From assembly GCA_045628045.1 (NCBI GenBank), contig JAZQOV010000011.1, positions 73,470 through 137,469 on the forward strand: 64,000 nt of DNA. Reading direction: 5' to 3'. The first letter of the stretch is position 1, and every line of letters starts with the position of its first letter. Below, one piece after another: positions 2,622 to 18,888 of this stretch. This stretch comes from Bacilli bacterium. Lineage in GTDB: Bacteria > Bacillota_I > Bacilli_A > RFN20 > CAG-826. The notes beneath the pieces were generated by a model, which worked only from the letters and a program-made list of their open reading frames with translations, was not told where the DNA came from and searched no databases. The position numbers and the translations under genes are program-made.

Positions 2622-5600
2622 ATGGAAAAAAAGCACAAAATATTTTCTTCGATAGGCATTTCTGCGATTGCACTTTTCTCTCTCGTTATTGCAGAACGTG
2701 GAATCGATGGATCTTTTTTGTCTGCAAAATTTCGTAATGTAAGTCAATACGGTTTATCACTTAATTCATCAAACTCATTTGCTGGTGGTAGTGGAACCAA
2801 AGTTGTTTATACAAATGGTAGCAATCCAGTTACATTTTCATACACTTCTTGTTCTTCATTAAGTGGTGGACACGTAAAAATTAATGAAAACGGAACAATT
2901 GCTAACGAAGATCATATTAGATCTATAACTGGTGTTACACCTGTTTTTACATGCTCCAGCGAAGCAACTAGTTTTGAATTTAGAGCATCATATGATAAAG
3001 AAACTTGGGGTCAATGGGGGTCTTTAGCAAGTGGTAAAACACGTCAATTTGAATCTGGACCTTATTACTTTGAATTTAAGGCTATTAATGGAGCAGTTAA
3101 TTTAACTTCTCTTAATTTTGAATATTCATGTGAAAGAAATTGGACTGTCGAACCAGAAGGTGAAGATAGTGGAACTAAAGAATTTGTGAAAGTTGCATCT
3201 GCTTTGGATGACTATGCTGGAACATATTTAATTGTTTGTGAATCAGAAGGTGTTGCATTTGATGGTTCTTTAACTAAATCTACAAGCACAGCGATTAGTG
3301 CTTCAGGAAATAAATTCGCTGTCACAATCACTGATGGAAAAATTGCCTATACAGACGATATTGCTAACAAAGTTTTTGAAATTACTGATGACGGTGAAGA
3401 CTCTAGTGGTAATATGACTTATCAAATCACATCACATTCGGGATATAAAATTACAAATACTGCTGATAGCAATTCTATGAGCGTTTTAGATGTTGATGAT
3501 GATACAGACTATTATAACTGGATTGGTTTTTGTGATAATGATGGATCAGATAATGATTTCTATATTAAGGGAAGCGGAGGATCTTATTTAAGATACAATT
3601 CATCTAATACACAGTTCAGATATTACAAATCATCAACTTACAAAGGACAAGCAGAAGTTTTCTTGTATAAATTATCAAATGGATCTGTCCCGATTGGAAT
3701 TCCAGAATATGAAGCAAAACTTCAAATAACTGATAATAATTCCGATAACTATATTTATGGTCATTCATTAAGTGAATCATTTGGAACTGAAGATTTTAAA
3801 GCATCTGTTTTAATGTCTAACGGAACTGAAACAGCCATTGATCCAAGCCAATTAACTATTGATATTGAAAAAGGTGGTGCACATTATGCATCTAATACCG
3901 CGCTTAATAGCGAAGGCACTTATAACGTTACAATTTCATATGGAGAATTAGCTCCAGTTAAATATCAAATCACAGTAAGTAAGATTGCTGTTGCATCTGT
4001 TACTTTTGATAAGAGCTCATTACGCTTGAAACCATCAGAAGATTACACACTTACTGCAACTGTATTACCAGAAACTGCATTTGACAAGTCTTTGACTTGG
4101 ACTTCTACAAATAATTCAGTTGCGACAGTTTCTACATCGGGTAAAGTTACTGCTGTAGCTGATGGAACTGCAACAATTAAGGCAACCGCAAATAATGGTA
4201 TATATGCATCTTGTGAAGTTACTGTTGCTTCAGCAGGACTTGTTGATCCAGGAATGCAAGCAGCTTATGAAGCAGCTATTGCTTTAAGCAATTCCTCCGA
4301 ATCTAACAGTTCGTATGAATTTACTGGTGTTGTAGTTGGCACAAGAACATCAGGATCAAATAAAGATGTGTATGTCCAAAGTGGCGATTATGCACTAGAC
4401 GTTTATAACAGTGGAAAAACGATGGCTTATAAAGATGAAGTCACTGTAAAATCCACATTAACAAAATATTCTGGAATTCCTGAAACAAAGACCATTAAGT
4501 CGTTCACAAATAATGGTCAATCAGTGTTGCCGCAAGCAAATGTAATTAATTCTGCATCAGATTTAGCTGATGCTAAGATTAATACATTATTAAATGCATC
4601 TGGAACAATTAAAACATTAAGTGCTTCAGGGTCGAGCATTACGGGTTCAAACGATGTTACAATTACTTTAACTACATCAAATGGCGACATTGCTGTTTTT
4701 GCAAAGAAGAATTCCTATAGCGGAATAAAGACAACTCTCCAAGGATTTAAGGTCGGAGATATCATGAATATCGAAAATGGTATTAGAGGTATTTACAATA
4801 CAACTGACCAAGTTTTACTTGTTTCAGAATCAGTTGTTACAAAAGGTACTCCAGTACACGTTGATGTTACAGGAATTACAGTTTCTCCAACAAATGTTGA
4901 TGTCAACGTTAATAGCACAACAACATTAACTGCAACAATCGCACCAGCAAACGCATCTAATAAAGGTGTTGTTTGGTCTTCAAGCAACTCAAATGTCGCG
5001 TCTGTTAATCAAAATGGTGTTGTTTCAGGTCATATTGCAGGACAGTCTGCAACTATTTACGCAAAATCAGCTGAGAATAATTCAATTTCGGCTTCATGTA
5101 CAGTTAATGTTAAAGCAATATCAGTTCAATCCGTGTCTTTAGATCAAAATACTGCAACTATAGCTATTGGTGAAGAATTGACATTAACTCATACAATCTC
5201 ACCATCTACTGCATCTAACCAAAATGTAACATGGTCAAGTAATGATCAATCTGTTGCAACTGTTAGCAATGGTGTTGTTTCGGCGTTAGCTGAAGGTGAG
5301 GCAACTATTACAGTTAAGACTGATGATGGAAATCACACAGCAAGTTGTGTTGTTACTGTTACTGAAAAATCAGCAGTAAAAGAATGGGTTTTAGTTACTA
5401 CGGCATCACAATTAATTAAAGATAACTTATATGTTATTGCTTGTAATTCTAAAGGCACAACTGCCGGAGATATTAGCAGTTCAATCATGGCTTCATTAGG
5501 TTCTACTTTTAGCAATGACAAATCAAAAATTACAACATTAAATAATGATACAGTTCAATTAAAACTTGGTGGTACTACTGATAAATGGACATTTGCCAAT

Positions 5601-8165
5601 TCAGATGGTGATTTATTAGGTGCTACTGCAGTAAAGAAACTTGCATGGGGCAGCGGCACAACAACTTGGAAGATTACATTCTCTGGAAATGATTGTAACT
5701 TAACAAATACATCATCAAGTTATGGAAGCATGTCATATAACTCAAGCAGTCCAAGATTTACTACATATAGTGCAACACAAACTGCAATTCAACTTTATAC
5801 TCTAACTGGTGGTGCAACTCCAACTCCAGAACCAACATTAGAATCAATTAAGGTTGATTCAAGTTCTCATAGAACATTCACCGTAGGTGATACTTTCGCT
5901 AAAGAAACCATTATGGCTGTTTATTCAGACGGTAATGAAGTTGATGTTACAAGCGAAGCAGCATTCTCTGGTTACAACATGAATTCTGCAGGAACTCAAA
6001 CAGTCTCAGTTTCATATGGCGGAAAATCAACTTCATATCAAATTACTGTTAATGCAAAAGTTGTAACATTAACAAGCATTACTGTTTCTGAAAATCATAG
6101 AACATTTAATGTAGGCGATACTTTCGTTGGAGAAACTGTCACTGCTTACTATAGCGACGGATCTCATAAAGAAGTAAATGCAACATTCTCTGGTTATGAC
6201 ATGAGCACTGCTGGTACATATACCGTAAGTGTTTCATACACTGAAGGTGGAATCACAAAAGACACATCTTATACAATTACAGTTAAATCTTCAGGATCTG
6301 GTGGTGGCGGAGCATCAGGAACACATACAATTTTATCTTCCGATGTGCCAACTTCATATGAAACAGATGGTGAAAAAACTGTAGATGATATCACATATGT
6401 GTTTAATCAAGTTGCTAATTCATATACACCTGGTTATATGCAATGTAAGAAGAGCGTTTCTTATATTTACAACAAAACCGCTATTGCCGGTTTAAAGTCT
6501 ATTAGTATTAATACAAGTAGCAAATCTTGGGGTGGCTCAGTTTATTATGGAACTAGTGAAGAACCATCTGCAAATAAAGCAACTTTAAGTGGTGGAAAAT
6601 ATTCCATTCCTTCTGGAAACTCATATTTTAATATTGTTACAAATGGATCAACTGGTTATATTGAATCAATTGATATTGAATACTCAACAACTCCTGTTAA
6701 TCCAACAGCTATTTCAATAAGTGGTGAAAATGAATTAACTCCAGGTTCAAGTACACAATTATCGCTTTCATTTAGCCCAAGCAACTGCAATGTTAAAGAT
6801 GTTACTTGGTCTTCAAATAATACTTCAATCACAGTTGATCAAACTGGAAAAGTTACAGTTTCAAGTACCGCTAAAGTTGGTGCTACTGCAACTATTACAG
6901 CAACTTCAAGAGAAGTTGGAACAGTAAAAGGAACATTCACTATTACTGTTGTAGATAAACCGGTTGTTCAAAAAGATGCGTGGACAATGCTCATTTATAT
7001 GTGCGGTGCTGATTTGGAGAGTGGGTATGCATCCAATAATGATGGCTGCGCAACAGATGACTTAAAAGAGATCTATTCTTTGAGGAATAGTTTGCCTGAC
7101 GATGTGAACATCGTTGTTCAAGCCGGCGGCGCTAAGGCTTGGTCATCTGAATATTCTTCCGTTATTAGCAAGGATAAAAGAAATAGATTCCACCTTACAA
7201 AATCTGGTTATGTAAAGGATTCACAAGATAGTAGAGTTAATATGGGGTCAGAATCTTCTTTGGAAGACTTTGTTGAGTGGGGTTTAGAAACTTACCCGGC
7301 CGAAAAGGTTGGATTGGTTTTCTGGGATCACGGTAGTGCTATGGGAGGTTGCTGTTTTGATGAACAATATAGCAGTGATGGACTTACTCCAGCTGAAGTA
7401 GCATCAGCAGTGCCAACAGCAATTTCAAAATCTGGATACAATCAAAATCTCGAGTTTATTGGATATGACTGCTGCTTGATGTCTATACAAGACATTGCCG
7501 GATTAAATGCTCAATATGCAAATTATATGATTGCTTCGCAAGAATCTGAATGGGGTTATGGTTGGTCATATGATAAATTTGTTGATAATTTAATGAGTAA
7601 GAAATCAACAACCACGATTCTAAAGGCTTGCGTTGATGGTTTCTCTCAAGATACAACTTCTTCCTATAATAACTGGGGTGATCCAAATGATCAAACCTTA
7701 GCGTATTACAACTTACAAAATTGGGCTGCATACGAAAATGCTTGGGAAGATTTTGCTGACTACTTAAGCACTAGCGTTATTAAATCGTCTAGCAACTGGA
7801 CTACATTTACCAAAGTGGTAAACCAAGCTCAAAAATACGGGTATGATAGTGATTCAAATTATCAAAAGTATAATGGAGGTTATTGCTATGATATTTTCGA
7901 TGTTAAGGATTTCCTTAACAAGATTAAATCTAGCAACGATTATAAGAATAATAGTTCACTAATGACCAAGGTATCTACAATTGAAACAGCATACACTGGG
8001 TTAGGTATTTATAGTAAGTGTGGGTCTGCCGCTGGTAATTCAAACGGACTATGTTTCTTCTGCCCATTATCTGGTTATAATGAGATAGATGGAGAATATG
8101 CCTCAGCAAATACAAGATTTAAAGAATGGCGATCACTTTGCGTTGAATACGGTAAATGGTATTAA
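2622..8165 (+). CDS. 1847-aa secreted/anchored protein with multiple Ig-like domains and a C-terminal clostripain-family (C11) cysteine peptidase
   Basis: N-terminal hydrophobic segment; repeated Big_2-type motifs (TWSSSN..VATV...G.V). C-terminus has WTMLIYMCGADLES, WDHG (catalytic His) and GYDCCLM (catalytic Cys), typical of C11. Confidence 0.85.
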   Translation: MEKKHKIFSSIGISAIALFSLVIAERGIDGSFLSAKFRNVSQYGLSLNSSNSFAGGSGTKVVYTNGSNPVTFSYTSCSSLSGGHVKINENGTIANEDHIRSITGVTPVFTCSSEATSFEFRASYDKETWGQWGSLASGKTRQFESGPYYFEFKAINGAVNLTSLNFEYSCERNWTVEPEGEDSGTKEFVKVASALDDYAGTYLIVCESEGVAFDGSLTKSTSTAISASGNKFAVTITDGKIAYTDDIANKVFEITDDGEDSSGNMTYQITSHSGYKITNTADSNSMSVLDVDDDTDYYNWIGFCDNDGSDNDFYIKGSGGSYLRYNSSNTQFRYYKSSTYKGQAEVFLYKLSNGSVPIGIPEYEAKLQITDNNSDNYIYGHSLSESFGTEDFKASVLMSNGTETAIDPSQLTIDIEKGGAHYASNTALNSEGTYNVTISYGELAPVKYQITVSKIAVASVTFDKSSLRLKPSEDYTLTATVLPETAFDKSLTWTSTNNSVATVSTSGKVTAVADGTATIKATANNGIYASCEVTVASAGLVDPGMQAAYEAAIALSNSSESNSSYEFTGVVVGTRTSGSNKDVYVQSGDYALDVYNSGKTMAYKDEVTVKSTLTKYSGIPETKTIKSFTNNGQSVLPQANVINSASDLADAKINTLLNASGTIKTLSASGSSITGSNDVTITLTTSNGDIAVFAKKNSYSGIKTTLQGFKVGDIMNIENGIRGIYNTTDQVLLVSESVVTKGTPVHVDVTGITVSPTNVDVNVNSTTTLTATIAPANASNKGVVWSSSNSNVASVNQNGVVSGHIAGQSATIYAKSAENNSISASCTVNVKAISVQSVSLDQNTATIAIGEELTLTHTISPSTASNQNVTWSSNDQSVATVSNGVVSALAEGEATITVKTDDGNHTASCVVTVTEKSAVKEWVLVTTASQLIKDNLYVIACNSKGTTAGDISSSIMASLGSTFSNDKSKITTLNNDTVQLKLGGTTDKWTFANSDGDLLGATAVKKLAWGSGTTTWKITFSGNDCNLTNTSSSYGSMSYNSSSPRFTTYSATQTAIQLYTLTGGATPTPEPTLESIKVDSSSHRTFTVGDTFAKETIMAVYSDGNEVDVTSEAAFSGYNMNSAGTQTVSVSYGGKSTSYQITVNAKVVTLTSITVSENHRTFNVGDTFVGETVTAYYSDGSHKEVNATFSGYDMSTAGTYTVSVSYTEGGITKDTSYTITVKSSGSGGGGASGTHTILSSDVPTSYETDGEKTVDDITYVFNQVANSYTPGYMQCKKSVSYIYNKTAIAGLKSISINTSSKSWGGSVYYGTSEEPSANKATLSGGKYSIPSGNSYFNIVTNGSTGYIESIDIEYSTTPVNPTAISISGENELTPGSSTQLSLSFSPSNCNVKDVTWSSNNTSITVDQTGKVTVSSTAKVGATATITATSREVGTVKGTFTITVVDKPVVQKDAWTMLIYMCGADLESGYASNNDGCATDDLKEIYSLRNSLPDDVNIVVQAGGAKAWSSEYSSVISKDKRNRFHLTKSGYVKDSQDSRVNMGSESSLEDFVEWGLETYPAEKVGLVFWDHGSAMGGCCFDEQYSSDGLTPAEVASAVPTAISKSGYNQNLEFIGYDCCLMSIQDIAGLNAQYANYMIASQESEWGYGWSYDKFVDNLMSKKSTTTILKACVDGFSQDTTSSYNNWGDPNDQTLAYYNLQNWAAYENAWEDFADYLSTSVIKSSSNWTTFTKVVNQAQKYGYDSDSNYQKYNGGYCYDIFDVKDFLNKIKSSNDYKNNSSLMTKVSTIETAYTGLGIYSKCGSAAGNSNGLCFFCPLSGYNEIDGEYASANTRFKEWRSLCVEYGKWY

Positions 8166-8942: not shown

Positions 8943-9614
8943 ATGAAAAAATTTAAAACATTATTTACTATCTTATGCCTCGGTGGTCTTTGGGGATTAC
9001 TTGAAGCTACACTTGGAACCTTACTTCATCTTCCAGTAATTCATGAAGTTGTTTTCTTTGGTTCTACAGCAGTTTTACTTCCAATTGCCTATTTAATTAC
9101 TGGCAGAGCATATAAAGTTACTGGCAGAGCCAGAGCAGCCTTATATGTTGGCTTAGTAGCAGCCGCTATTAAATCAGTAACATTTGCATTTGGACTTCCA
9201 GTTCAATATGTCATTAACCCAATGGTTTCTATTCTTTTAGAATCATCAGTTATGGCTGTTGCATTTAAAGTTAGCAAACCTGCAAATGTTTGTTCACCTA
9301 AATCATTCGTTACATTTGTTGTTGCATCTTTAGCATTTAGAGTCATTTATGTTGGCTATTCAATGGCTACAGCAGAACCATTCGGATCAGCATATTTAGT
9401 CGCTGGTTCAGTTATGTGGAATGCCATTATTGACTACGTTATTGTTGCTCTTGGAATCTCATGTATTTACGCTGTTATTTACATGCTTGTTGGAACACTC
9501 TTAACACGCAAAATATCCGTAAAATCCCTGGAAAAAGTCCAACATTTTGCCTATTCTCCAGTATTTTCTATTGTGATGATTGTAACTGCAGTTGTCGCAA
9601 CAATATTGTTATAA
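8943..9614 (+). CDS. Integral membrane protein, possibly an ECF-type substrate-binding component
   Basis: Probable start is ATG 8943 after a GCGGAG SD (the track starts at 8844). About 6 TM segments; GGLWGLLE motif. Confidence 0.55.
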   Translation: MKKFKTLFTILCLGGLWGLLEATLGTLLHLPVIHEVVFFGSTAVLLPIAYLITGRAYKVTGRARAALYVGLVAAAIKSVTFAFGLPVQYVINPMVSILLESSVMAVAFKVSKPANVCSPKSFVTFVVASLAFRVIYVGYSMATAEPFGSAYLVAGSVMWNAIIDYVIVALGISCIYAVIYMLVGTLLTRKISVKSLEKVQHFAYSPVFSIVMIVTAVVATILL

Positions 9615-9627
9615 TTTGAATTATATT

Positions 9628-9655
9628 TTGAAATTTATTTTCGCTGTGTTATATT
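9628..9655 (+). promoter_or_regulatory. SigA-type promoter, sRNA unit 1
   Basis: TTGAAA-16 nt-TATATT with extended -10 TG. Equivalent elements in unit 2 (10091-10118, TTGTAA) and unit 3 (10562-10589, TTGTTA). Confidence 0.7.
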
Positions 9656-9661
9656 ATTTGT

Positions 9662-9728
9662 GACGGGTACTGGTTTGTGCACGTAATAAAAGGATGTCAG
9701 GTTGCTGCCTGGCATCCTTTCTTCATTT
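9662..9728 (+). ncRNA. Putative antisense antitoxin sRNA 1
   Basis: Lies between the promoter and the terminator hairpin aaaggatgtcagg-ttgctg-cctggcatccttt. Its 5' part (9664-9677) is directly repeated at 9739-9752, so it is complementary to the convergent mRNA. Confidence 0.7.
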
Positions 9729-9754
9729 TAAGCAAAGGCGGGTACTGGTTTGCG

Positions 9755-9817
9755 CTAGTTGCTATTAAGCATTACGAGTAACACTAGGATAACAACTAGC
9801 ACCAGAAGGTACTCGAT
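9755..9817 (-). CDS. Putative type I toxin peptide 1 (20 aa, IEYLLVLVVILVLLVMLNSN; AUC start inferred)
   Basis: Hydrophobic frame conserved in all three units; GGAGG 9 nt upstream of ATC. Confidence 0.65.
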   Translation of the reverse strand: MEYLLVLVVILVLLVMLNSN

Positions 9818-9873
9818 AGCAAGTATCCTCCCTTCTGACCAAGCACCCGCGGTTGCCCGTAGATCTTGATCAT
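9796..9873 (-). CDS. 25-aa leader ORF 1 (MIKIYGQPRVLGQKGGYLLSSTFWC)
   Basis: GGAGG SD plus ATG; same length and stop position in all three units. Confidence 0.55.
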   Translation of the reverse strand: MIKIYGQPRVLGQKGGYLLSSTFWC

Positions 9874-9919
9874 ACCTGCCTCCATTTAAAACTATCCGAT
9901 TTTATTAATCGGCGAGCAC

Positions 9920-9954
9920 ATTATTTCACAACGTATATTCCTCTTGTCAAGAGG
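9920..9954 (-). promoter_or_regulatory. Promoter for toxin mRNA 1, with a palindrome over the -35
   Basis: TTGACA (9945-9950) with a weak -10 (TGAAAT or AATAAT); cctcttg-t-caagagg palindrome at 9940-9954. TTGACA is conserved at 10416-10421 and 10877-10882. Confidence 0.6.
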
Positions 9955-10123
9955 TCAAAAAAGTTACCTATATTAATATAGAAACTAAGATTTACTTATA
10001 ACTCTAGAACTATACTTATATTAATATTAGGTAAAAAATTTTTAATTTTTGTTTATATATTGTTTCTAGTACTGGTGAATTGTTTTTTCTTTGTAAATAG
10101 TTTTGAATGTGTTATATTATAAG

Positions 10124-10186
10124 CGATAGATACTTAGGCGCTATCAAATGAAAAGATATCAGGTTCCAGCCCGATATCTTTTTTTC
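10124..10186 (+). ncRNA. Putative antisense antitoxin sRNA 2
   Basis: Promoter upstream; 5' hairpin gatag..ctatc; terminator aaaagatatc..gatatctttttt; 10124-10137 repeated at 10197-10210. Confidence 0.7.
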
Positions 10187-10217
10187 GTTTTGAACTCGAT
10201 AGATACTTAGACGTTAG

Positions 10218-10289
10218 TTATTGCTTAGAATTATCTTGAATTATTTCAAGTAAAACAAGGACAATAACTAGCATAACCAGATACTGGAT
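10218..10289 (-). CDS. Putative toxin peptide 2 (23 aa, IQYLVMLVIVLVLLEIIQDNSKQ), frameshifted by a 13-nt insertion
   Basis: GGAGG-9 nt-ATC. Removing 10235-10247 restores a 20-aa peptide collinear with units 1 and 3. Confidence 0.55.
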   Translation of the reverse strand: MQYLVMLVIVLVLLEIIQDNSKQ

Positions 10290-10345
10290 GGCATACGCCC
10301 TCCTCTCTGACTAAGCACCCATCGAATTCTCTGGATCTTAGCCAT
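10268..10345 (-). CDS. 25-aa leader ORF 2 (MAKIQRIRWVLSQRGGRMPSSIWLC)
   Basis: GGAGGAG SD plus ATG; collinear with units 1 and 3. Confidence 0.55.
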   Translation of the reverse strand: MAKIQRIRWVLSQRGGRMPSSIWLC

Positions 10346-10594
10346 ATCTATCTCCTCCAAAACTATCCGATTCTATTAATCGGCGTGCATATTATTTCAC
10401 ACTGCATATTCCCCTTGTCAAGAGGTCAAAAAAGTTACCTATATTAATATAGAAACTAAGATTTACTTATAACTCTAGAACTATACTTATATTAATATTA
10501 GGTAAAAAATTTCTAATTTTTGTTTATGTATTGTTTCTAGTACTGGTGAATTGTTTTTTCTTTGTTAATACTTGTGAATGTGCTATATTATATT

Positions 10595-10660
10595 CGACAG
10601 GTACTTAGTAGACTAGTCAAATGAAAAGATATCAGGTTGCAGCCCGATATCTTTTTTTCA
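10595..10660 (+). ncRNA. Putative antisense antitoxin sRNA 3
   Basis: Promoter upstream; terminator aaaagatatc-aggttgcagccc-gatatctttttt; 18-nt 10598-10615 repeated exactly at 10673-10690. Confidence 0.7.
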
Positions 10661-10687
10661 TTTAGGACTCAGCAGGTACTTAGTAGA

Positions 10688-10750
10688 CTAATTATCTATC
10701 AGCATTAAAAGTAACACCAATATGATAATTAGTACAATAAGGTATTGGAT
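10688..10750 (-). CDS. Putative type I toxin peptide 3 (20 aa, IQYLIVLIIILVLLLMLIDN; AUC start inferred)
   Basis: GGAGG-9 nt-ATC; single TM-like helix. Confidence 0.65.
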   Translation of the reverse strand: MQYLIVLIIILVLLLMLIDN

Positions 10751-10806
10751 GTCATAAGACCTCCTCCCTGACTAAGCACCCTTTGAGCTCGTTGGATCTT
10801 AGCCAT
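10729..10806 (-). CDS. 25-aa leader ORF 3 (MAKIQRAQRVLSQGGGLMTSNTLLY)
   Basis: AGGAGG SD plus ATG; collinear with units 1 and 2. Confidence 0.55.
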   Translation of the reverse strand: MAKIQRAQRVLSQGGGLMTSNTLLY

Positions 10807-11089
10807 ACCTGCCTCCTGCTAAACTATCCGATTTTTAAAATCGGCGTGCATATTATTTCATAGGTTATATTCCCCTTGTCAAGAGGACTAAAAAGTTACC
10901 TTATATTAATATAACTCCATTGGATTTATTTACTAAGTAAAGATTTACTATATTAATAATAAGGTAAAAATTTAAAAAATTTGGTTCCTATTATATATTT
11001 AGTGCATAAAATCGAACTTTTTCTTTGAAAAGATTGTTTTAATGCGCTCGCTCGTGTATGATATTTATGCACATACATAGGAGAACTTA

Positions 11090-11659
11090 ATGGTTGGTAT
11101 TGTCCTTGCGGGTGGTTATTCATCCCGAGCCAAAGTTAATAAGCTCCTCCTGGAGGTAGATCGTAAACCTCTTATTCGTCATACAATTGACACTTTGAAA
11201 CCTTTCTGTAAAAAGGTTTTTGTTGTGACAGGAAAATATCATGATGAACTTAGTCAAGTTTTAGATGATGTTGAGATTGTTTGTAACAAAGATTTTGATT
11301 TAGGAATGTTTTCTAGCGTGCTTGCAGGAATTAATGCTGCTCTAGGCGAAGATGTTTTACTTATCCCAGGTGATATTTCTAATGTGGCTAAAACCACTAT
11401 TGAAGCTTTGCTTTACGGAAATAAAGACATCCGTATTCCTTCTTATGAAGGAATTACAGGACATCCTGTTTTTATTTCGAAGAAATATGTTGAACTTTTA
11501 TCTCATGAACCAGTTAGTTCCAGATTATGTGATTTTCTTAACGCGCACGAGTGTGCAAAGGAAGTTATCAGTGTAAATGACCCTTTTATCAATTTTGATA
11601 TTGATACGATTGAGGATTACAACAGATTTATTAATACAAGAAAGGAAGTTACTTTATGA
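11090..11659 (+). CDS. mocA: Molybdenum cofactor cytidylyltransferase (MocA/YgfJ family)
   Basis: VLAGGYSSR, GMFSSV, PGD, GHPV and DIDT motifs; adjacent to Mo hydroxylases. Confidence 0.85.
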   Translation: MVGIVLAGGYSSRAKVNKLLLEVDRKPLIRHTIDTLKPFCKKVFVVTGKYHDELSQVLDDVEIVCNKDFDLGMFSSVLAGINAALGEDVLLIPGDISNVAKTTIEALLYGNKDIRIPSYEGITGHPVFISKKYVELLSHEPVSSRLCDFLNAHECAKEVISVNDPFINFDIDTIEDYNRFINTRKEVTL

Positions 11660-12423
11660 AAGCAAAATCTTTCATTAGACCTTCTTCTTTAGAAGAGGCC
11701 TATAAGCTTGTTAAAGCTTCACCAAAGAACAAAATTGTCGCTGGTGGACTTTGGCTTAAAAAAGGAAACGCTGAAGCAGAAACTCTCATTGATATTTCAT
11801 CTCTTGGCCTAGACAAAATCTTAGACAAAAAAGAATACGTTGAAGTTGGCGCAATGGTTTCCCAAAGAGAACTTGAAAAATCTTCACTTGTTCCTGAAGT
11901 AATTAGAGAAGCAACTGCATTAGTTATGGGACCAGCATTCCGTAATATCGCGTCAGTTGGAGGATCAGTTTATGGAAAATATGGTTTTTCTGACATTGTC
12001 ACAGCATTACTTGTATACAAAGTAGAACTCGTTTTCTACCCAGAAGCAGTAATCACACTTGATGAATACGTCAAAAAACCTGGATTTTATGATGGAATTT
12101 TAACTCACATAAGAATTTACAAAGATAATCGCAAGGCTTTCTTTAAGAAAGTTGAAATTACTGCACTTGATTATCCAATTCTTAACGTTGCAGTTTCCGA
12201 AGGAAAAGAATGCAAAATTGTTATTGGTTCACGCCCACTTGTTGCATGCGTTTGCGAGCAAGCAAGCGCACTTGCTAGCAAAGGTGAAAAGGATTTTGAA
12301 AAGATCGCTGCTTTAGCAGTTGAAGAAACAAAATTCGGTGATTCAATCGCCACCAAAGGTGAATATAGAAAACAACTTGCACTCACTTATGTAAGACGTG
12401 GTCTTGAGGAGGTTAACAAATAA
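11656..12423 (+). CDS. Molybdenum hydroxylase FAD-binding subunit (YgfM-like)
   Basis: RPSSLEEAY, AGGLWL and FRNIASVGG motifs. Confidence 0.85.
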   Translation: MKAKSFIRPSSLEEAYKLVKASPKNKIVAGGLWLKKGNAEAETLIDISSLGLDKILDKKEYVEVGAMVSQRELEKSSLVPEVIREATALVMGPAFRNIASVGGSVYGKYGFSDIVTALLVYKVELVFYPEAVITLDEYVKKPGFYDGILTHIRIYKDNRKAFFKKVEITALDYPILNVAVSEGKECKIVIGSRPLVACVCEQASALASKGEKDFEKIAALAVEETKFGDSIATKGEYRKQLALTYVRRGLEEVNK

Positions 12424-12875
12424 TGTTAGTCAAATTCAATCTCAACGGACTTGATATCGAAGTCAATGTAAAACCAGGCGAGTATCTTTTAGATACACTT
12501 AGAGCTTATGGTGTTAAATCAGTCAAAAAAGGCTGTGATGGTTCCGCATGCGGAGTCTGTACAGTTCTTCTTGATGATAAACCAGTTTTATCTTGCTCAG
12601 TTTTAACTGCAAAAGTTGAAGGTCACAAAGTGACCACAGTTGAAGCAATTCAAGATGAAGCTGCTAAATTATCCGAATGCTTCTCTCGTGAAGGTGCAGA
12701 TCAGTGCGGCTTCTGTAATGCAGCATTCGCACTTATGGTGCACGCACTCAAAAAAGAAAATCCACATCCAACAGATGAGGAAATCAAAGATTATATGGTC
12801 GGAAACCTTTGCAGATGCACAGGTTATCAATCTCAACAAAAAGCAATTAAAGCTTATTTAGGAGGTAAGAAATAA
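12423..12875 (+). CDS. Molybdenum hydroxylase 2x[2Fe-2S] subunit
   Basis: GCDGSACGVC, QCGFC and NLCRCTGY. Confidence 0.92.
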   Translation: MLVKFNLNGLDIEVNVKPGEYLLDTLRAYGVKSVKKGCDGSACGVCTVLLDDKPVLSCSVLTAKVEGHKVTTVEAIQDEAAKLSECFSREGADQCGFCNAAFALMVHALKKENPHPTDEEIKDYMVGNLCRCTGYQSQQKAIKAYLGGKK

Positions 12876-15190
12876 TGAAAAAGAATTTCAAAGTTGTAAA
12901 CAACTTAACTCCTAGTGTTGATGGAAAAGGTCTTATGCAAGGTCGTGCTGTTTACACAGACGACATTGCTCCTCAAGGTGCTTTAATTGTTAAAATTTTA
13001 AGATCACCACATGCTTTCGCAAGAATTAAATCAATTGACGTTAGTGAAGCTGAAAAACTTCCTGGCGTTGCATGTATTTTAACCAAGGATAACGTCCCAC
13101 ACGTTTCATTTACACGTGCAGGACAAGGTTATCCTGAACCATCACCATACGATAAATTCATCTTGGATGAATATGTTCGTTATGTTGGTGATGAAGTTGC
13201 TGCAGTTGCAGCAGTTGATGAAGAAACTGCTTTAGCAGCAATGAAGCTCATCAAAGTTGATTATGAGGTTTTAAAACCAGTCCTCAACTTTGAAGAAGCT
13301 TTTGAAAACGAATCAGTTATCCACCCAGAAGATGGAATCCATGACATGTTCCCAATTGGTTTTGAACCAAAGAAGAATGTTGCAGCATCTTATGAGATGG
13401 AAGTTGGCAACGTCGAAGAAGAATTAAAGAAATCTGAAGTTGTTGTCGAAGACACATTCTATTCACAAGCACAAGCTCACGCTATGATCGAGCCACACAC
13501 TTGTAATGCACGCTTAGACGAGCACAATAGACTTGTTGTTTATTCCACAACTCAAACTCCATATCATATGCGTAGAATCATCTGCAAGACCTTAGGTCTT
13601 CCAGTTGATAGAGTTAGAGTCATTAAACCAAGAGTTGGTGGTGGCTTTGGTGGAAAACAAGCTTTCCATGGTGAAATGTTTGTCTCCCTTGTTACTTTAA
13701 GAACAAATAAACCTGCAAAATGTGTTTATACTCGTGAAGAAGTATTTGGTTGTTCTTATACGAGACACCCAATGAGAATCTCACTTAGAGTTGGTGCAAA
13801 TAAAGATGGTGTTATTAACGCAATCGATTGCCGCACTCTTTCAGATACAGGTGCTTATGGTGAACACGCTTTAACAGTCTTTATGATTGTTGGTTCTAAA
13901 GTTTTGCCACTTTATAACAAAGTTAAAGCTGTTAAATTCGGTGGAAGAGTTGTTTACACGAACCATGTATCTGCGGGCGCATATCGTGGTTATGGTGCTA
14001 TTCAAGGTAACTACGCAGTTGAATCCATCATTGATGAACTTGCGGAAAAGCTTCATATGGATCCAATTAAGCTTCGTGAAATTAACTCCATGAAGGAAAA
14101 AGAAACTTCCCCAATCTTTAAGATTATGGGTGAAGGTACCGAAGGTACAGAAATGATTATGGAAAGCTGCAAGCTTCCATATTGTATTAAACGTGGTCGT
14201 GAACTTATGGATTGGGACAAGAAATACCCAGTTAAGAAAGTTGGAGATCACAAAATTAGATCAGTTGGTTGCGCAATTGCCATGCAAGGTTCAGGAATTC
14301 CATTCTTAGATATGGGTTCTTGTACAATTAAACTTAATGATGGTGGCTCATACATGGTCACCGTTGGTGCTACTGATATTGGACAAGGCTCTGATACAGT
14401 TATTTCTCAAATTGTTGCAGAAGCTCTTCAAACAACAATGGACAAAGTCATTATCTATTCATCTGATACAGACTTAACTCCATACGATTGTGGTGCTTAC
14501 GCTTCTTCAACAACCTATGTTTCTGGTAACGCAGCATATAATGCTGCTTGCAAGATGAGAGAAAGACTTCTTAAAGAAGCTGCAGTTGAACTCAAAGTAA
14601 AACCAGATGAGGTTGAATTTGATGGAACAACATTTAAAGCTGGCAAGAAGTCAATCTCACTTGTTGATTTATCAACAGGAAGACTTTATAACAACAATAC
14701 ACATCAAATTGCTGTTACAGAATCTTATCATGGTCATGTTTCTCCACCTCCATTTATGGCAGCATTTGGAGAATTCGAATTTGACACAGAAACTTACGAA
14801 TACAAGATGATTAAGTACGTTACAGTTACTGACTGTGGTACAACAATTAACCCAGCATTGGCCAAAGGCCAAGTTGAAGGTGGTATTATCCAAGGTTATG
14901 GCATGGCTTCAAGTGAAGCGGTGCTTTATAGCTCAAATGGAAAACTACTTTCAAATACTTTTGATACTTATCACATTCCAACTGTCAAAGAAGTTGGTGA
15001 GCTTGTTACTGAATTTGCTGATTCATATGAACCAACAGGTCCATTTGGCGCAAAATCAGTTGGTGAAATTGGTATTGATACACCTCCAGCAGTACTCTGC
15101 AATGCAGTTTACAATGCTTTCGGTGTAAGAATTCATCATTTACCAATCACACCAGAAAAAATCTTTGAAACAATGAAGGCTAAAAAATAA
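12875..15190 (+). CDS. Molybdenum hydroxylase Moco-binding subunit (XdhD-like)
   Basis: GGGFGGK, AYRGYG, GQVEGG and KSVGE motifs. Confidence 0.9.
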   Translation: MKKNFKVVNNLTPSVDGKGLMQGRAVYTDDIAPQGALIVKILRSPHAFARIKSIDVSEAEKLPGVACILTKDNVPHVSFTRAGQGYPEPSPYDKFILDEYVRYVGDEVAAVAAVDEETALAAMKLIKVDYEVLKPVLNFEEAFENESVIHPEDGIHDMFPIGFEPKKNVAASYEMEVGNVEEELKKSEVVVEDTFYSQAQAHAMIEPHTCNARLDEHNRLVVYSTTQTPYHMRRIICKTLGLPVDRVRVIKPRVGGGFGGKQAFHGEMFVSLVTLRTNKPAKCVYTREEVFGCSYTRHPMRISLRVGANKDGVINAIDCRTLSDTGAYGEHALTVFMIVGSKVLPLYNKVKAVKFGGRVVYTNHVSAGAYRGYGAIQGNYAVESIIDELAEKLHMDPIKLREINSMKEKETSPIFKIMGEGTEGTEMIMESCKLPYCIKRGRELMDWDKKYPVKKVGDHKIRSVGCAIAMQGSGIPFLDMGSCTIKLNDGGSYMVTVGATDIGQGSDTVISQIVAEALQTTMDKVIIYSSDTDLTPYDCGAYASSTTYVSGNAAYNAACKMRERLLKEAAVELKVKPDEVEFDGTTFKAGKKSISLVDLSTGRLYNNNTHQIAVTESYHGHVSPPPFMAAFGEFEFDTETYEYKMIKYVTVTDCGTTINPALAKGQVEGGIIQGYGMASSEAVLYSSNGKLLSNTFDTYHIPTVKEVGELVTEFADSYEPTGPFGAKSVGEIGIDTPPAVLCNAVYNAFGVRIHHLPITPEKIFETMKAKK

Positions 15191-16494
15191 TGAACGATTT
15201 ACTTGTCAAAAACGGTTTAGTATTCCTAAAAGGAAAATGGGTTAAGACCAACTTAGCCGTTTTAGGCGAGAAAATTGTTTATATTGGTGAAAAAGAACAA
15301 GAAGCAACAGAAGTTATTGATGCTGAAGGACTAAAAGTCCTTCCAGGATTAATTGATCCTCATATTCATTTTGAACTTAATTGCGGAAGAGTTACTTCTT
15401 GTGATGATTTCTATTCAGGTTCTATTGCCGCTGCTTATGGTGGAGTTACAACTTATGTTGATTTCCTTGATCCTACAAGTAACGCTGAGGAACTTGAAAA
15501 GTCTTATTATGAACGTATTGCTTTGGCAAAGAAGTCAGTTGTTGACTATCACATGCACGCTTGCATAAAAATGCCAAACGGTGATTTAGAGGAATACGTT
15601 AAGACCGTTGTAAAACTCGGAATGCGCACAATTAAGTTGTTTACAACTTATAGTGACACAGGACGTAGAACTTATGACAAAGACATTATTGAATTACTTA
15701 AATTAAGTAAAAAATATAATGTTATGATTTGTGCTCATATTGAAAATGATGACTTAATTGACCTTAGAGAAGGTTATACCTTCAAGGATCTTCCAGTTTC
15801 TCGTCCAAGTATCTCTGAGACTAGCGAAGCTCTTAAACTTGCTAAGATTGTCCGTGAAACTGGTGGTAATTTCTACATGGTTCACTGCTCTAGTGGCGAA
15901 ACTCTTAAGGCGCTCAAAGAGCAATTTAGTGATATTTTAGGTAAAAACTTCTTTGTGGAAAGTTGTCCTCAATATTTTGTATTTAATAATTCAGTTCTTG
16001 AGGAAGATAATGGCAAGTTATTTACATTTGCTCCACCTCTAAGAAGTGAAAGAGAAAGACAGCTACTTGTTGCTAACTATAAAGACATTATTTCTATTGG
16101 CACAGACCATTGTGCATTTATGAAAAAAGAGAAGGATTTCCCACGTCTAATGGGCTTCCCACTTGGCGTTGGTGGAATCGAACATAGTTTCTCAATTATG
16201 TATAAAAGATTTGGTGAAGAAATCATCGATAAAATGTCAAAAAACACGGGAATTCTCCAGGATTTTCCAACTAAAGGAGAACTTGAAGTTGGTAAAGATG
16301 CAGACATTTCTATCTTTAAAGAAGTGCCAGATTTTATTGAAAAAGAAAACCATGGAACTTGTGATTATTCGATATATGATGGAGTCCTTGGTTCAGGTGA
16401 ATTTGTACACGTAATTAATCGTGGAAAATTTGTTATCAAAAACAGAAAACTTATTCCACATGTTGGAAAAGAAATTGTTTGTGGGGTGAAATAA
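15190..16494 (+). CDS. Cyclic amidohydrolase (dihydropyrimidinase/hydantoinase, HyuA-like)
   Basis: PGLIDPHIH, AAAYGGVTT, PPLR and GTDHC motifs. Confidence 0.85.
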   Translation: MNDLLVKNGLVFLKGKWVKTNLAVLGEKIVYIGEKEQEATEVIDAEGLKVLPGLIDPHIHFELNCGRVTSCDDFYSGSIAAAYGGVTTYVDFLDPTSNAEELEKSYYERIALAKKSVVDYHMHACIKMPNGDLEEYVKTVVKLGMRTIKLFTTYSDTGRRTYDKDIIELLKLSKKYNVMICAHIENDDLIDLREGYTFKDLPVSRPSISETSEALKLAKIVRETGGNFYMVHCSSGETLKALKEQFSDILGKNFFVESCPQYFVFNNSVLEEDNGKLFTFAPPLRSERERQLLVANYKDIISIGTDHCAFMKKEKDFPRLMGFPLGVGGIEHSFSIMYKRFGEEIIDKMSKNTGILQDFPTKGELEVGKDADISIFKEVPDFIEKENHGTCDYSIYDGVLGSGEFVHVINRGKFVIKNRKLIPHVGKEIVCGVK

Positions 16495-16495
16495 T

Positions 16496-17788
16496 ATGAA
16501 CGCTATTATTAACGCTAGAATTTATGACTATGTAACCTACATTGAAAACGGGTATCTTATTTACGACGATAAGATTGTTGAAGTGGGAGACATGAAAAAC
16601 TTCAAAAATAAAGGATTCGACAAAATCGAAGACTATGAAGGTGATTTACTCATGCCTACATTTGTTTGTGCACACTCTCACATATATTCGATTTTTGCTC
16701 GTGGCTTATCTCTTCCATTTAATCCACAAAATTTCCAAGATATTTTGAATCAAATGTGGTGGAAGATTGATGCAGAGCTTGTTAACAAAGAAACTTATTA
16801 TTCAGGAATTGCAGCAGGTAGTGAATTCCTTCTTAACGGAGTTACATCTGTAATTGACCATCATGCATCTGGTGAAATCACAGGTTCTTTGAAAGAACTT
16901 AGAAAAGCTTTTGTGGGTCCACTTAAAATGCGTGGTATTTTCTGTTTTGAAACTTCAGATCGTTATGATGTGAAGAAATGTTTAAAAGAAAACGCTAGCT
17001 TCGCTAAAAAATATCCTGGTGAAGGATTATTTGGCATGCACGCTTCAATGTCTATTTCAGATAAAACACTTAAAGGCATTGCTAAAGCTCAAAACGGTGT
17101 TCCTTTACACGTGCATTGTGCTGAAAGCGAAATGGATGAAGCTGATAGCCTTGCAAAATATAAAAAGAATATTATTAAAAGATTTGATGATGCTGGAATA
17201 CTAATTCCAAATTCACTCGTCGTTCATGGTGTTCATCTAAAAGATGAAGAACTTGAAATAATCGCTAAAAATAAATGTTATATGGTTGTTAATACAACCT
17301 CAAATATGAACAATGCAGTTGGTTTACCATTTGTTAAAAACTACATTGATCATAATATTCCAGTTATGGTTGGAAACGATGGCCTTAATTCAAATATGGC
17401 CAGCGAATATATGAATGTTTTGTTCTCAGGACATTTAAGAGTTGGTTCTCCAACTGCATTAGGTGTTGGTGATATTCAAAACATGATTAGAAATTCTTAC
17501 AAATACGTCGGTGAAAGACTCGGCGTAAAACTTGGTGAATTTAAGAAGGGTTACGAAGCAGATTTCATGAGAGTTCATTATCGTCCATTCACAAAAATGG
17601 ATGAGACAAATGCACTCGGTCATATCGTGTTTGGACTCTTCCCAAATTTCAAACCAAGAGACGTTTATACTTACGGTAAAAAACGAGTAAATAACTACAA
17701 AATCGCCAGTAAATCCCTGGTAAATCAGGTTATTGAGGCCAGAAAATATGCTGACGAATTATGGGCCAAAGTTAAAGGAGGAAAATAA
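16496..17788 (+). CDS. ssnA: SsnA-like amidohydrolase/deaminase
   Basis: AHSHIYSIFARG, NGVTSVIDHHAS, GMHAS, HVHCAE and SNMNNAVG. Confidence 0.8.
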   Translation: MNAIINARIYDYVTYIENGYLIYDDKIVEVGDMKNFKNKGFDKIEDYEGDLLMPTFVCAHSHIYSIFARGLSLPFNPQNFQDILNQMWWKIDAELVNKETYYSGIAAGSEFLLNGVTSVIDHHASGEITGSLKELRKAFVGPLKMRGIFCFETSDRYDVKKCLKENASFAKKYPGEGLFGMHASMSISDKTLKGIAKAQNGVPLHVHCAESEMDEADSLAKYKKNIIKRFDDAGILIPNSLVVHGVHLKDEELEIIAKNKCYMVVNTTSNMNNAVGLPFVKNYIDHNIPVMVGNDGLNSNMASEYMNVLFSGHLRVGSPTALGVGDIQNMIRNSYKYVGERLGVKLGEFKKGYEADFMRVHYRPFTKMDETNALGHIVFGLFPNFKPRDVYTYGKKRVNNYKIASKSLVNQVIEARKYADELWAKVKGGK

Positions 17789-17790
17789 CT

Positions 17791-18888
17791 ATGGACATTT
17801 CTACAAAGTTTGACGGATTAGTACTTGATAATCCACTTATGCCAGCAGCAGGACCAGTCGTTGGTGATGCTGAAAAAATGTTATGGCTTGAGAAGGTTGC
17901 AGGTTGTGGTGCAATTGTTGCAAAAACAATCTCAACAAAAGATGCTCACATTCCACATCCATGTATTTATGGTGATCGTGATTACATCATGAATTGTGAA
18001 TTATGGACTGAACACACAAAAGAAAAATGGATTAACGAGTTTTTACCTTTTTATAAGAAAAATTCTATTGGTAAGCCACTTATTATTTCAGTTGGTTATA
18101 CCAAAGAAGATATGGAAGTGCTCATTCCTTTACTTGATAAGTTTGCAGATGCATTCGAAGTTTCAACTCATTACGTTGGAAATGATTTAAATCAACTTGC
18201 TGAAACAGTTTCGACCATTAGAAGACTTACAAAGAAGCCTTTTTATATGAAAATATCAGCTCATATGCCAGATCCTGAAGGATTTGCCCATACAATTAAA
18301 GAAAATGGTGCAAACGGTGTTGTTGCAGTTAACTCACTTGGACCATCAATGAAAATTGATATCGAAAAACGTGAAATTATTTATGGAAACGCTAAAGGTT
18401 TTGCTTGGACAAGCGGACCATATATTAAAAATATTGCTTTAGCAACAGTTTATACAATTAAGAAAGCTGAACCATCATTAACAGTTATTGGTGTTGGTGG
18501 TATTGCTACAGCAAGTGATGTTATTGAATTCTTACTTGCAGGCGCTAGCGCAGTTCAAATGCTTTCAGCAGCAATGCTTCGTGGTAAAGAACTCTATGCA
18601 AAAATTATTGCTGACCTCCCAGCAGCTTTAGAAAAGTATGGATTCAAATCAGTTGAAGATGTTATTAAGACAGGCTTACATCAAGAACTTCGCTACGAAA
18701 TGGGCGATGCTCCAACAGTTGATGCTACAAAATGTAGCAAATGTGGAACTTGTGCAAGAATCTGTCCATATTTTGCTATTGAAATGGATGGAACTCCAAA
18801 ATTCAATTCTGAAAAATGTTTTAGATGTGGACTTTGTGTTTCAAAATGTCCAGTCAAGGCACTTACATATCATAAAGGAGCTAAGTAA
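17791..18888 (+). CDS. Dihydroorotate/dihydropyrimidine dehydrogenase-like FMN enzyme with C-terminal 2x[4Fe-4S] (PreA-like)
   Basis: NPLMPAAGP, KTIS, IGVGGI and AGASAVQ; two CxxCxxCxxxCP motifs. Confidence 0.8.
   Translation: MDISTKFDGLVLDNPLMPAAGPVVGDAEKMLWLEKVAGCGAIVAKTISTKDAHIPHPCIYGDRDYIMNCELWTEHTKEKWINEFLPFYKKNSIGKPLIISVGYTKEDMEVLIPLLDKFADAFEVSTHYVGNDLNQLAETVSTIRRLTKKPFYMKISAHMPDPEGFAHTIKENGANGVVAVNSLGPSMKIDIEKREIIYGNAKGFAWTSGPYIKNIALATVYTIKKAEPSLTVIGVGGIATASDVIEFLLAGASAVQMLSAAMLRGKELYAKIIADLPAALEKYGFKSVEDVIKTGLHQELRYEMGDAPTVDATKCSKCGTCARICPYFAIEMDGTPKFNSEKCFRCGLCVSKCPVKALTYHKGAK

Follow-up and report, generated by a model that had tools for sequence, protein, structure and literature searches.

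The window analysed here is a stretch of 64,000 nucleotides (nt) from a Bacilli bacterium (GTDB lineage RFN20; CAG-826), corresponding to positions 73,470 to 137,469 of contig JAZQOV010000011.1 in assembly GCA_045628045.1. Between the end of a membrane-protein gene at 9614 and the start of a MobA-like gene at 11090 it contains a gap that is made up of three tandem units, each of which is very probably a type I toxin-antitoxin (TA) module. The units are about 465 base pairs (bp) long, start 462 and 473 bp apart and have a mean column identity of 83%, in agreement with a preliminary description of the sequence that had reported three units of the same layout in the gap. In every unit a predicted small RNA (sRNA) on the (+) strand and a predicted messenger RNA (mRNA) on the (-) strand are convergent, with one hairpin terminator common to both.

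Most of the elements that the preliminary description had named were located. The (+) strand promoters have the form TTG-16 nt-TATATT with a TG extension, and the sRNA that had been put at ~65 nt is predicted to be 65-67 nt long, ending in a two-sided terminator whose hairpin (about -15 kcal/mol) lies between A- and T-runs. The consensus terminator scan itself listed only the terminator of unit 1 and not those of units 2 and 3. On the (-) strand the units contain the 5' hairpin, a first Shine-Dalgarno sequence (SD1), a leader open reading frame (ORF) of 25 amino acids (aa) and a second Shine-Dalgarno sequence (SD2). The promoter of the mRNA was found only in part: TTGACA boxes are present (9950, 10421 and 10882) but do not belong to a typical promoter, the best -10 element (TG-n-AATAAT), identified by inspection, being 19 bp away. 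The promoter scan did not list these boxes. The predicted mRNAs are ~230-240 nt long, each encoding a small hydrophobic peptide whose start is probably non-canonical. Their fold z-scores were -6.1, -6.1 and -5.9, and for each of them none of 200 shuffled sequences was as stable.

The hydrophobic frames of units 1, 2 and 3 (20, 23 and 20 codons) translate as IEYLLVLVVILVLLVMLNSN, IQYLVMLVIVLVLLEIIQDNSKQ and IQYLIVLIIILVLLLMLIDN. A hydrophobic ORF of ~20 aa had been described before, and these frames bear it out, but its start just after SD2 does not hold. The hydrophobic frame has no ATG, GTG or TTG at SD2 and carries an ATC 9 nt after the GGAGG; the ATG/TTG that closely follows SD2 is read in the leader frame, and if it is taken as the start of the peptide it yields only 8 codons. 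The codon at the start position was compared in 24 modules and is ATG in 7, GTG in 5, ATC in 4, ATA in 3, TTG in 3, ATT in 1 and CTG in 1. All 24 are of the ATN/NTG type, which is true of 144 among 308 internal L/I/V/M/F codons, and in 5 of the 24 modules the position is directly preceded by a stop in the same frame. Since all 24 codons are one step from ATG and five have a stop directly before them, this comparison makes it very likely that the ATC is the peptide start and that initiation occurs at AUC. An AUH or CUG start is seen in 9 of 15 modules from the window's genus and in none of the 30 of a second set (see below). To our knowledge, the known non-AUG starts of type I toxins are GUG. 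Type I toxins with non-AUG starts are mentioned, with no codons named, in the excerpt of PMC8167048; here and below, statements from the literature refer to excerpts of the cited papers. The leader ORF of the window units ends 22 nt inside the peptide ORF. A function for the leader product was considered and rejected because length, frame and sequence of the leader peptides are not conserved across modules.

The sRNA and the mRNA of a unit share a repeat, with the first copy at the 5' end of the sRNA and the second just past the stop codon of the peptide, in what we call element E. Pairing was computed in the main set of 24 modules, of which 21 were non-redundant after 3 near-duplicates had been dropped. 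The mean energy of the sRNA with its own E was -21.8 kcal/mol, compared with -9.0 kcal/mol for non-cognate partners, and the own partner was the best in 18 of the 21 modules (the sRNA of module G87, probably mis-delimited, was scored as a miss). For the window units the computed sRNA-mRNA energies were -30, -27 and -25 kcal/mol with the own partner and -8 to -16 kcal/mol across units. The three pairs are orthogonal, each sRNA fitting its own mRNA only. Within the mRNA, E pairs with an element C in the leader interior (-22.9 vs -11.6 kcal/mol; shuffle p<=0.01 in 20/21) and also with the SD1 region (-14.7 vs -9.5 kcal/mol; p<=0.01 in 9/21). As an alternative to E, C has a possible partner in B, the leader start (-8.7 vs -5.4 kcal/mol; 7/21). 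The sRNA paired with the leader start at -9.6 kcal/mol, compared with -7.9 kcal/mol for non-cognate pairs, and was not above the shuffles in 19 of 21 modules.

A second set of 30 modules, 22 of them non-redundant, was obtained with a sequence-only model, so that 54 modules were analysed in total. Four near-duplicates, a masked locus and a locus used for training were excluded from it, and its anchors and four -10 positions were placed by hand. E paired with C at -15.4 vs -8.7 kcal/mol (p<=0.01 in 13/22). The best target of the sRNA was E in 15 of the 22 modules (13 of them strong) and the start codon of the peptide in 7, of which 6 are without SD2. Since the best targets are either E or the start codon, the sRNAs appear to be aimed at sites that are critical for translation. 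A sister subfamily (L143-L146, L151, L159-L162, L165-L169) has a very short sRNA that repeats the start-codon region of the peptide; its members are mostly without SD2 and retain the C:E helix. One phage form additionally has a stretch that matches the leader start.

Behind some modules, at a distance of ~100 bp, extra cassettes of terminator, repeat and -10 box were seen (L008 at G000:C11:62768-62897; L028 and L032 at G033:C37). They are without an mRNA promoter or an intact ORF and are, from their sequence, likely spare antitoxins with drifted 5' arms.

Features of the three-unit array in the window (E, repeat element behind the peptide ORF; B and C, helix partners in the leader; UTR, untranslated region)
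Feature	Positions	Strand	Basis
Unit 1 sRNA promoter, TTGAAA-16-TATATT, TG extension	9628..9655	+	promoter scan
Unit 1 predicted antitoxin sRNA, ~66 nt; 5' repeat copy 9664-9680	9662..9727	+	ends inferred
Unit 1 two-way terminator hairpin, shared	9689..9720	.	terminator scan, layout
Unit 1 element E (3' UTR), second repeat copy 9739-9755; predicted sRNA target/long-range switch	9730..9754	-	
Unit 1 hydrophobic peptide ORF, 20 codons, likely AUC start	9755..9817	-	
Unit 1 leader ORF, 25 aa; SD1 9880-9883; holds B, C and SD2 (9827-9831)	9796..9873	-	
Unit 1 mRNA 5' hairpin	9896..9912	-	
Unit 1 mRNA promoter, TTGACA; TG-n-AATAAT 19 bp on; atypical	9920..9950	-	inferred
Unit 1 upstream inverted repeat, arms 9964-9980 and 10017-10034	9964..10034	.	
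Unit 2 sRNA promoter	10091..10118	+	promoter scan
Unit 2 predicted sRNA, ~65 nt; repeat copy 10125-10137	10125..10189	+	
Unit 2 terminator, shared	10151..10182	.	
Unit 2 element E; repeat copy 10198-10210	10192..10217	-	
Unit 2 hydrophobic peptide ORF, 23 codons, likely AUC start	10218..10289	-	
Unit 2 leader ORF, 25 aa	10268..10345	-	
Unit 2 mRNA 5' hairpin (10367-10383) and promoter (TTGACA 10416-10421)	10367..10421	-	
Unit 2 upstream inverted repeat	10435..10505	.	
Unit 3 sRNA promoter	10562..10589	+	promoter scan
Unit 3 predicted sRNA, ~67 nt; repeat copy 10598-10615	10596..10662	+	
Unit 3 terminator, shared	10624..10655	.	
Unit 3 element E; repeat copy 10673-10690	10665..10687	-	
Unit 3 hydrophobic peptide ORF, 20 codons, likely AUC start	10688..10750	-	
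Unit 3 leader ORF, 25 aa	10729..10806	-	
Unit 3 mRNA 5' hairpin (10828-10844) and promoter (TTGACA 10877-10882)	10828..10882	-	
Unit 3 upstream inverted repeat	10896..10967	.	

We propose that the module works as a two-state switch, a mechanism that we consider, on balance, probable. The hydrophobic peptide of ~20 residues would be made only by coupling to the short leader ORF. Once E is transcribed, the mRNA is predicted to have two exclusive folds, a closed one with E on SD1 and B paired to C, and an open one with E on C, which would leave the leader start free. Ribosomes bound to the leader would then unfold SD2 and start the peptide at the weak AUC, as we infer from hok/mok and ldrD/ldrX. 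The 5' arm of the sRNA would pair with E over 17-20 bp and block the open fold, the sRNA acting as a decoy that removes E. Silencing would thus be exerted from a distance, by an sRNA bound to a 3'-UTR element just behind the peptide stop codon, and pairing over the common terminator may add decay by RNase III. With a stable mRNA and a labile sRNA, each unit would be an addiction module, and the array would have three separate specificities.

In the computed folds, opening the leader start of units 1-3 cost 9.0-13.1 kcal/mol before E was included and 6.4-8.7 kcal/mol in the full mRNA, where the C:E fold lowers it, while the peptide's own start region cost 10.3-12.2 kcal/mol. When E was blocked, the cost at the leader start rose in 16 of 24 modules. 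Cofolding with the cognate sRNA raised it in unit 2 (5.6 to 9.8) and in unit 3 (6.8 to 11.2). Single positions of E vary together with their partners in C, in the SD1 region and in B. In alignment A2, 87% of the cells of the C:E helix are paired, compared with 33-49% in slid controls and with 0 of 500 shuffles as high, and 6 of the 12 pairs show changes on both sides; the counted helix was, however, derived from the same sequences, and kin are not independent, which is the first of several points that weigh against the switch.

The others concern the folds, the coupling and the promoter. In unit 1 the cofold with the cognate sRNA lowered the cost at the leader start (7.5 to 4.2), and blocking E produced no rise in 8 of the 24 modules. 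The B:C helix is weak outside the window's genus, with the own partner best in 3 of 21 modules, and the SD2 hairpin has only a slight cognate specificity (-7.2 vs -6.3 kcal/mol). In the second set, E with C misses the shuffle test in 9 of 22 modules. The end of the leader ORF varies from -37 to +72 nt relative to the peptide start, in all three frames across modules, so coupling would not be uniform. Units 1 and 2 carry a GTG or ATG 15 nt downstream of the ATC, beside the leader stop, which could be the real start instead; unit 3 is without it. The 19-bp spacer of the atypical mRNA promoter is a further such point.

A type I TA module could also work through decay, with the sRNA pairing to E and to the ~40-bp terminator and the resulting duplex being cut by RNase III, as in txpA/RatA; the long-range helices would then do no more than stabilise and silence the mRNA. 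In Firmicutes, antitoxins that pair at the 3' end work through RNase III (PMC8167048). The two RNAs are by construction complementary along the whole terminator overlap, with another 17-20 bp from the pairing of the sRNA to E, and the cofold of unit 1 runs contrary to the switch. However, decay explains neither the covariation of E with two exclusive 5' partners nor a sister subfamily in which the sRNA is at the start codon and E:C is kept, and we regard it as unlikely. We consider very improbable a lock of the hok/AapA kind, in which long-distance pairing of E with SD1 would hold the full-length mRNA closed, trimming of the 3' end would activate it and C:E would be incidental. The minimum-energy folds of units 1 and 3 do pair E with SD1, and 5'-3' locks released by trimming are known, as in AapA (PMC6733600). 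Against such a lock, the leader start is harder and not easier to open without E, trimming of E would remove the sole strong target of the sRNA, given the weak pairing at the leader start, and E with C is conserved better than E with SD1.

The nature of the peptide has to be weighed separately. The RNA control could be real and the peptide a non-lethal regulator at the membrane, acting for instance on a transporter or on the entry of phages, rather than a toxin. It matches no toxin family, and the window peptides are without the basic C-terminal tail that is common in type I toxins (PMC8309996). IbsC, however, is likewise without a basic tail and needs just 15 residues, and the layered silencing, the unit-specific sRNAs, the unrelated neighbours, the change in copy number and the location in prophages fit addiction modules; we judge a regulator quite unlikely.

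The distribution of the family was analysed with the sequence-only models R1 and R2 plus patterns. The own genome has 5 full modules. At E<=0.001, R1 had matches in 7 of 61 genomes (relatives and the own genome); on inspection, four genomes of the genus had full modules and three did not. Full modules are present in 4 of 37 genomes of the genus, a patchy occurrence. In the order sample 7 of 151 genomes matched (including G000), with 8 modules confirmed in 4 genomes and 2 matches discarded, and in the class sample R2 matched 6 of 150 scored genomes (including G000), one of which was rejected. The Erysipelotrichales sample, taken from the NCBI order of the 'uncultured Coprobacillus' record, had 18 of 151 genomes at E<=1e-5. 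Loci from the pattern search had the module layout in 4 of 5 cases from genomes, 3 of 7 from metagenomes and 35 of 35 from viruses, the viral loci being near-identical copies of one subfamily. In the one provirus examined, the module is flanked by a 165-aa ORF and the gene of the terminase small subunit. A module of the AUC subfamily (L051), to which the window units also belong, is present in Candidatus Fiminaster equi (Bacilli incertae sedis), and this assigns the host to the gut Bacilli with small genomes. There was no DNA match in the INPHARED phages or the PLSDB plasmids, and the window-specific pattern matched 0 viral contigs. Matches in G047, G053, G059, G132, G163, G216 and L050 and at 4 of the 7 metagenome loci were inspected and are not full modules; L158 was dropped as masked and fitting poorly.

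At the site of the array, both flanking genes are less than 200 bp apart in the relatives G017 and G033, and 19 loci fetched from relatives at the flanking gene had no module match in any. Two metagenome contigs of 80% likeness join across unit 1 (9590 to 10084 in X9, 9568 to 10084 in X1) and across unit 3 (10536 to 11049 in both). Because the sites of relatives are empty and contigs skip unit 1 or unit 3, the array is, by these comparisons, a variable insertion. Elsewhere, one module copy adjoins HipA-like and helix-turn-helix genes, and in a copy at L003:1070-1321 the third codon of the peptide is a nonsense codon and the end of a transposase-like ORF, which we take to be IS605/TnpB-like, stands in place of the promoter. 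The patchiness, the empty sites, the contigs that skip a unit and the HipA-like, transposase-like and viral contexts point to a spread like that of TA systems. In three relatives, different modules (L005, L017 and L021) occupy one site directly upstream of the same gene, presumably an rpsF-like ribosomal protein gene, and their sequences suggest a swapping of cassettes.

A search of related genomes and of Rfam, as the preliminary description had suggested, yielded the modules above and, at 20 related loci, no Rfam match that covered the module. In the window, Rfam gave 0 matches at the gathering score and at E<=10 only chance-level matches to RatA and BSnc120, with RatA at 24.2 bits against a gathering score of 49 (E=2.5) and on the wrong strand. 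Six window ORFs compared with Pfam and NCBIfam matched ComGC at E=0.77 only and 0 Pfam families. Of 22 aligned peptides, 17 were long enough for a family scan and gave 3 weak single-member matches. The peptides had 0 matches in the PDB, and none of 8 family peptides looked up occurs in a collection of 15 billion proteins. Among the sequencing runs listed for the sequence none was an RNA run, which has no bearing on whether the units are expressed. A search of the genome with the Fst profile PF13955 gave no match at E<=10. The supplements of Fozo 2010 contained no MEYL/MDYL match, one file being unsearchable and the candidate table giving accessions and not sequences. A description of the family was not found in a literature search whose reach did not include T1TAdb, subscription journals and bioRxiv supplements, and the term undescribed is provisional for that reason. 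With this proviso, the units likely represent a new family with a new wiring within type I TA.

As in par (Fst/RNAII of Enterococcus faecalis pAD1, with its relatives SprA1/SprA2 and Lpt), a short sRNA and an mRNA of ~230 nt are convergent on a common two-way terminator (PMC7472228), and a direct repeat makes a second pairing region with no ORF overlap (PMC7472228, PMC8594479). In pAD1, however, the direct repeats DRa and DRb pair at the translation start of the toxin (PMC7472228), whereas in each of the three units the mRNA copy follows the stop codon, and a repeat at the start as in par occurs only in the sister subfamily (7/22). The par-like layout noted earlier consequently holds for the convergent promoters and the shared terminator and not for the place of the repeat. 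Unlike par, the module has a leader ORF with its own Shine-Dalgarno sequence, and unlike Fst, its 20-23-aa peptide is without P/D/S/TXXXG (PXXXG), Trp or a long charged tail. The link to Ibs that had been drawn was not sustained. Ibs/Sib likewise have a very short L/I/V-rich peptide (~19-20 aa) and tandem copies, but a six-frame search of the genome with the Ibs profile PF13956 gave no match at E<=10 (among 14 control genomes, one exceeded the cut-off), Sib spans the whole ORF (PMC8594479) whereas the module sRNAs stop ~28 nt short of it, and the host range differs. What stands of the first reading is a type I TA-like family of par-like convergent layout, well supported by its anatomy, the cognate pairing and the spread; no match to a described family was found.

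With hok/mok/Sok and ldrD/ldrX/RdlD the module has in common a leader ORF that overlaps the toxin start and long-range 5'-3' pairing (PMC8167048); in the excerpt of PMC8594479, leader ORFs in T1TAdb are those of the two Gram-negative families hok and ldr only. Their antitoxins are encoded on the 5' side of the ORF and act by blocking the leader itself, whereas the module sRNA is encoded 3', and trimming of the 3' end is predicted not to activate the module mRNA. In bsrG/SR4 of Bacillus subtilis a 3'-binding antitoxin also inhibits translation from a distance, by refolding the Shine-Dalgarno region (PMC3834814). Antitoxins of the SR4 type, however, overlap the ORF in cis (PMC8594479), while the overlap in the module is the terminator only and the target is a repeat-made site predicted to switch the leader ORF; the lack of a cis overlap with the ORF also sets the module apart from TxpA/RatA and SprG/SprF. 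Like timP/TimR of enterobacteria, the module would have a processing-free switch with a long-range activating contact and an alternative locked fold (PMC13000454), but the timP switch is a 5' UTR with a pseudoknot and that of the module a 3'-UTR element in a par-like locus. The modules of C. difficile are overlapping convergent pairs, with no sign of such wiring in the excerpt of PMC5961336.

There are few families of type I TA, and their distribution is narrow, for the most part because gene callers miss toxins of 19-23 codons. The family described here extends them to small-genome gut Bacilli, Erysipelotrichales-type genomes and phages, and its module joins two designs listed apart so far, the Gram-positive par layout and the leader-ORF coupling of hok and ldr. 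If the switch is true, the antitoxin would control translation solely through a 3'-UTR element, and the modules would be a natural set of orthogonal sRNA/mRNA pairs; the sister subfamilies with differently aimed sRNAs are a built-in test of it. Taken at its widest, the proposal is a widespread undescribed family of gut Bacilli and phages with a processing-free 3'-UTR switch, an antitoxin acting purely at a distance, leader-coupled AUC/AUU/AUA starts, antitoxins re-aimed by short duplications (to the 3' UTR, the start codon or the leader) and spare cassettes as immunity, which we put forward tentatively, as possible but somewhat doubtful in its entirety.

Upstream of every mRNA promoter in the array is an inverted repeat of ~70 bp that was absent from the preliminary description. 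It is AT-rich, ends ~80 bp ahead of SD1 and has the same position in modules of G017, G008 and G033. In the modules of 7 relatives its arms are 18-19 bp long with a spacer of 31 bp, the sequence varying and the symmetry being kept; it was not seen outside the window's genus. It is possibly an operator or a cruciform.

At L029 (G059:C25) a Shine-Dalgarno sequence and the start of a MEYL-type hydrophobic ORF were seen with no clear terminator/repeat layout. A match to the Rfam DUF3800-I RNA (L053:1245-1377, (-) strand) is located ~60 bp upstream of the module of G099, near a tRNA gene. In the window, the MobA-like gene that follows the array, which matches Pfam NTP_transf_3, begins an operon for anaerobic purine/urate breakdown (11090-18888; MobA-like, molybdopterin dehydrogenase FAD subunit and onward). 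On the other side, positions 2622-8165 encode a secreted-looking protein of 1847 aa with repeated immunoglobulin-like stretches, whose C-terminal part we take to be clostripain-like.

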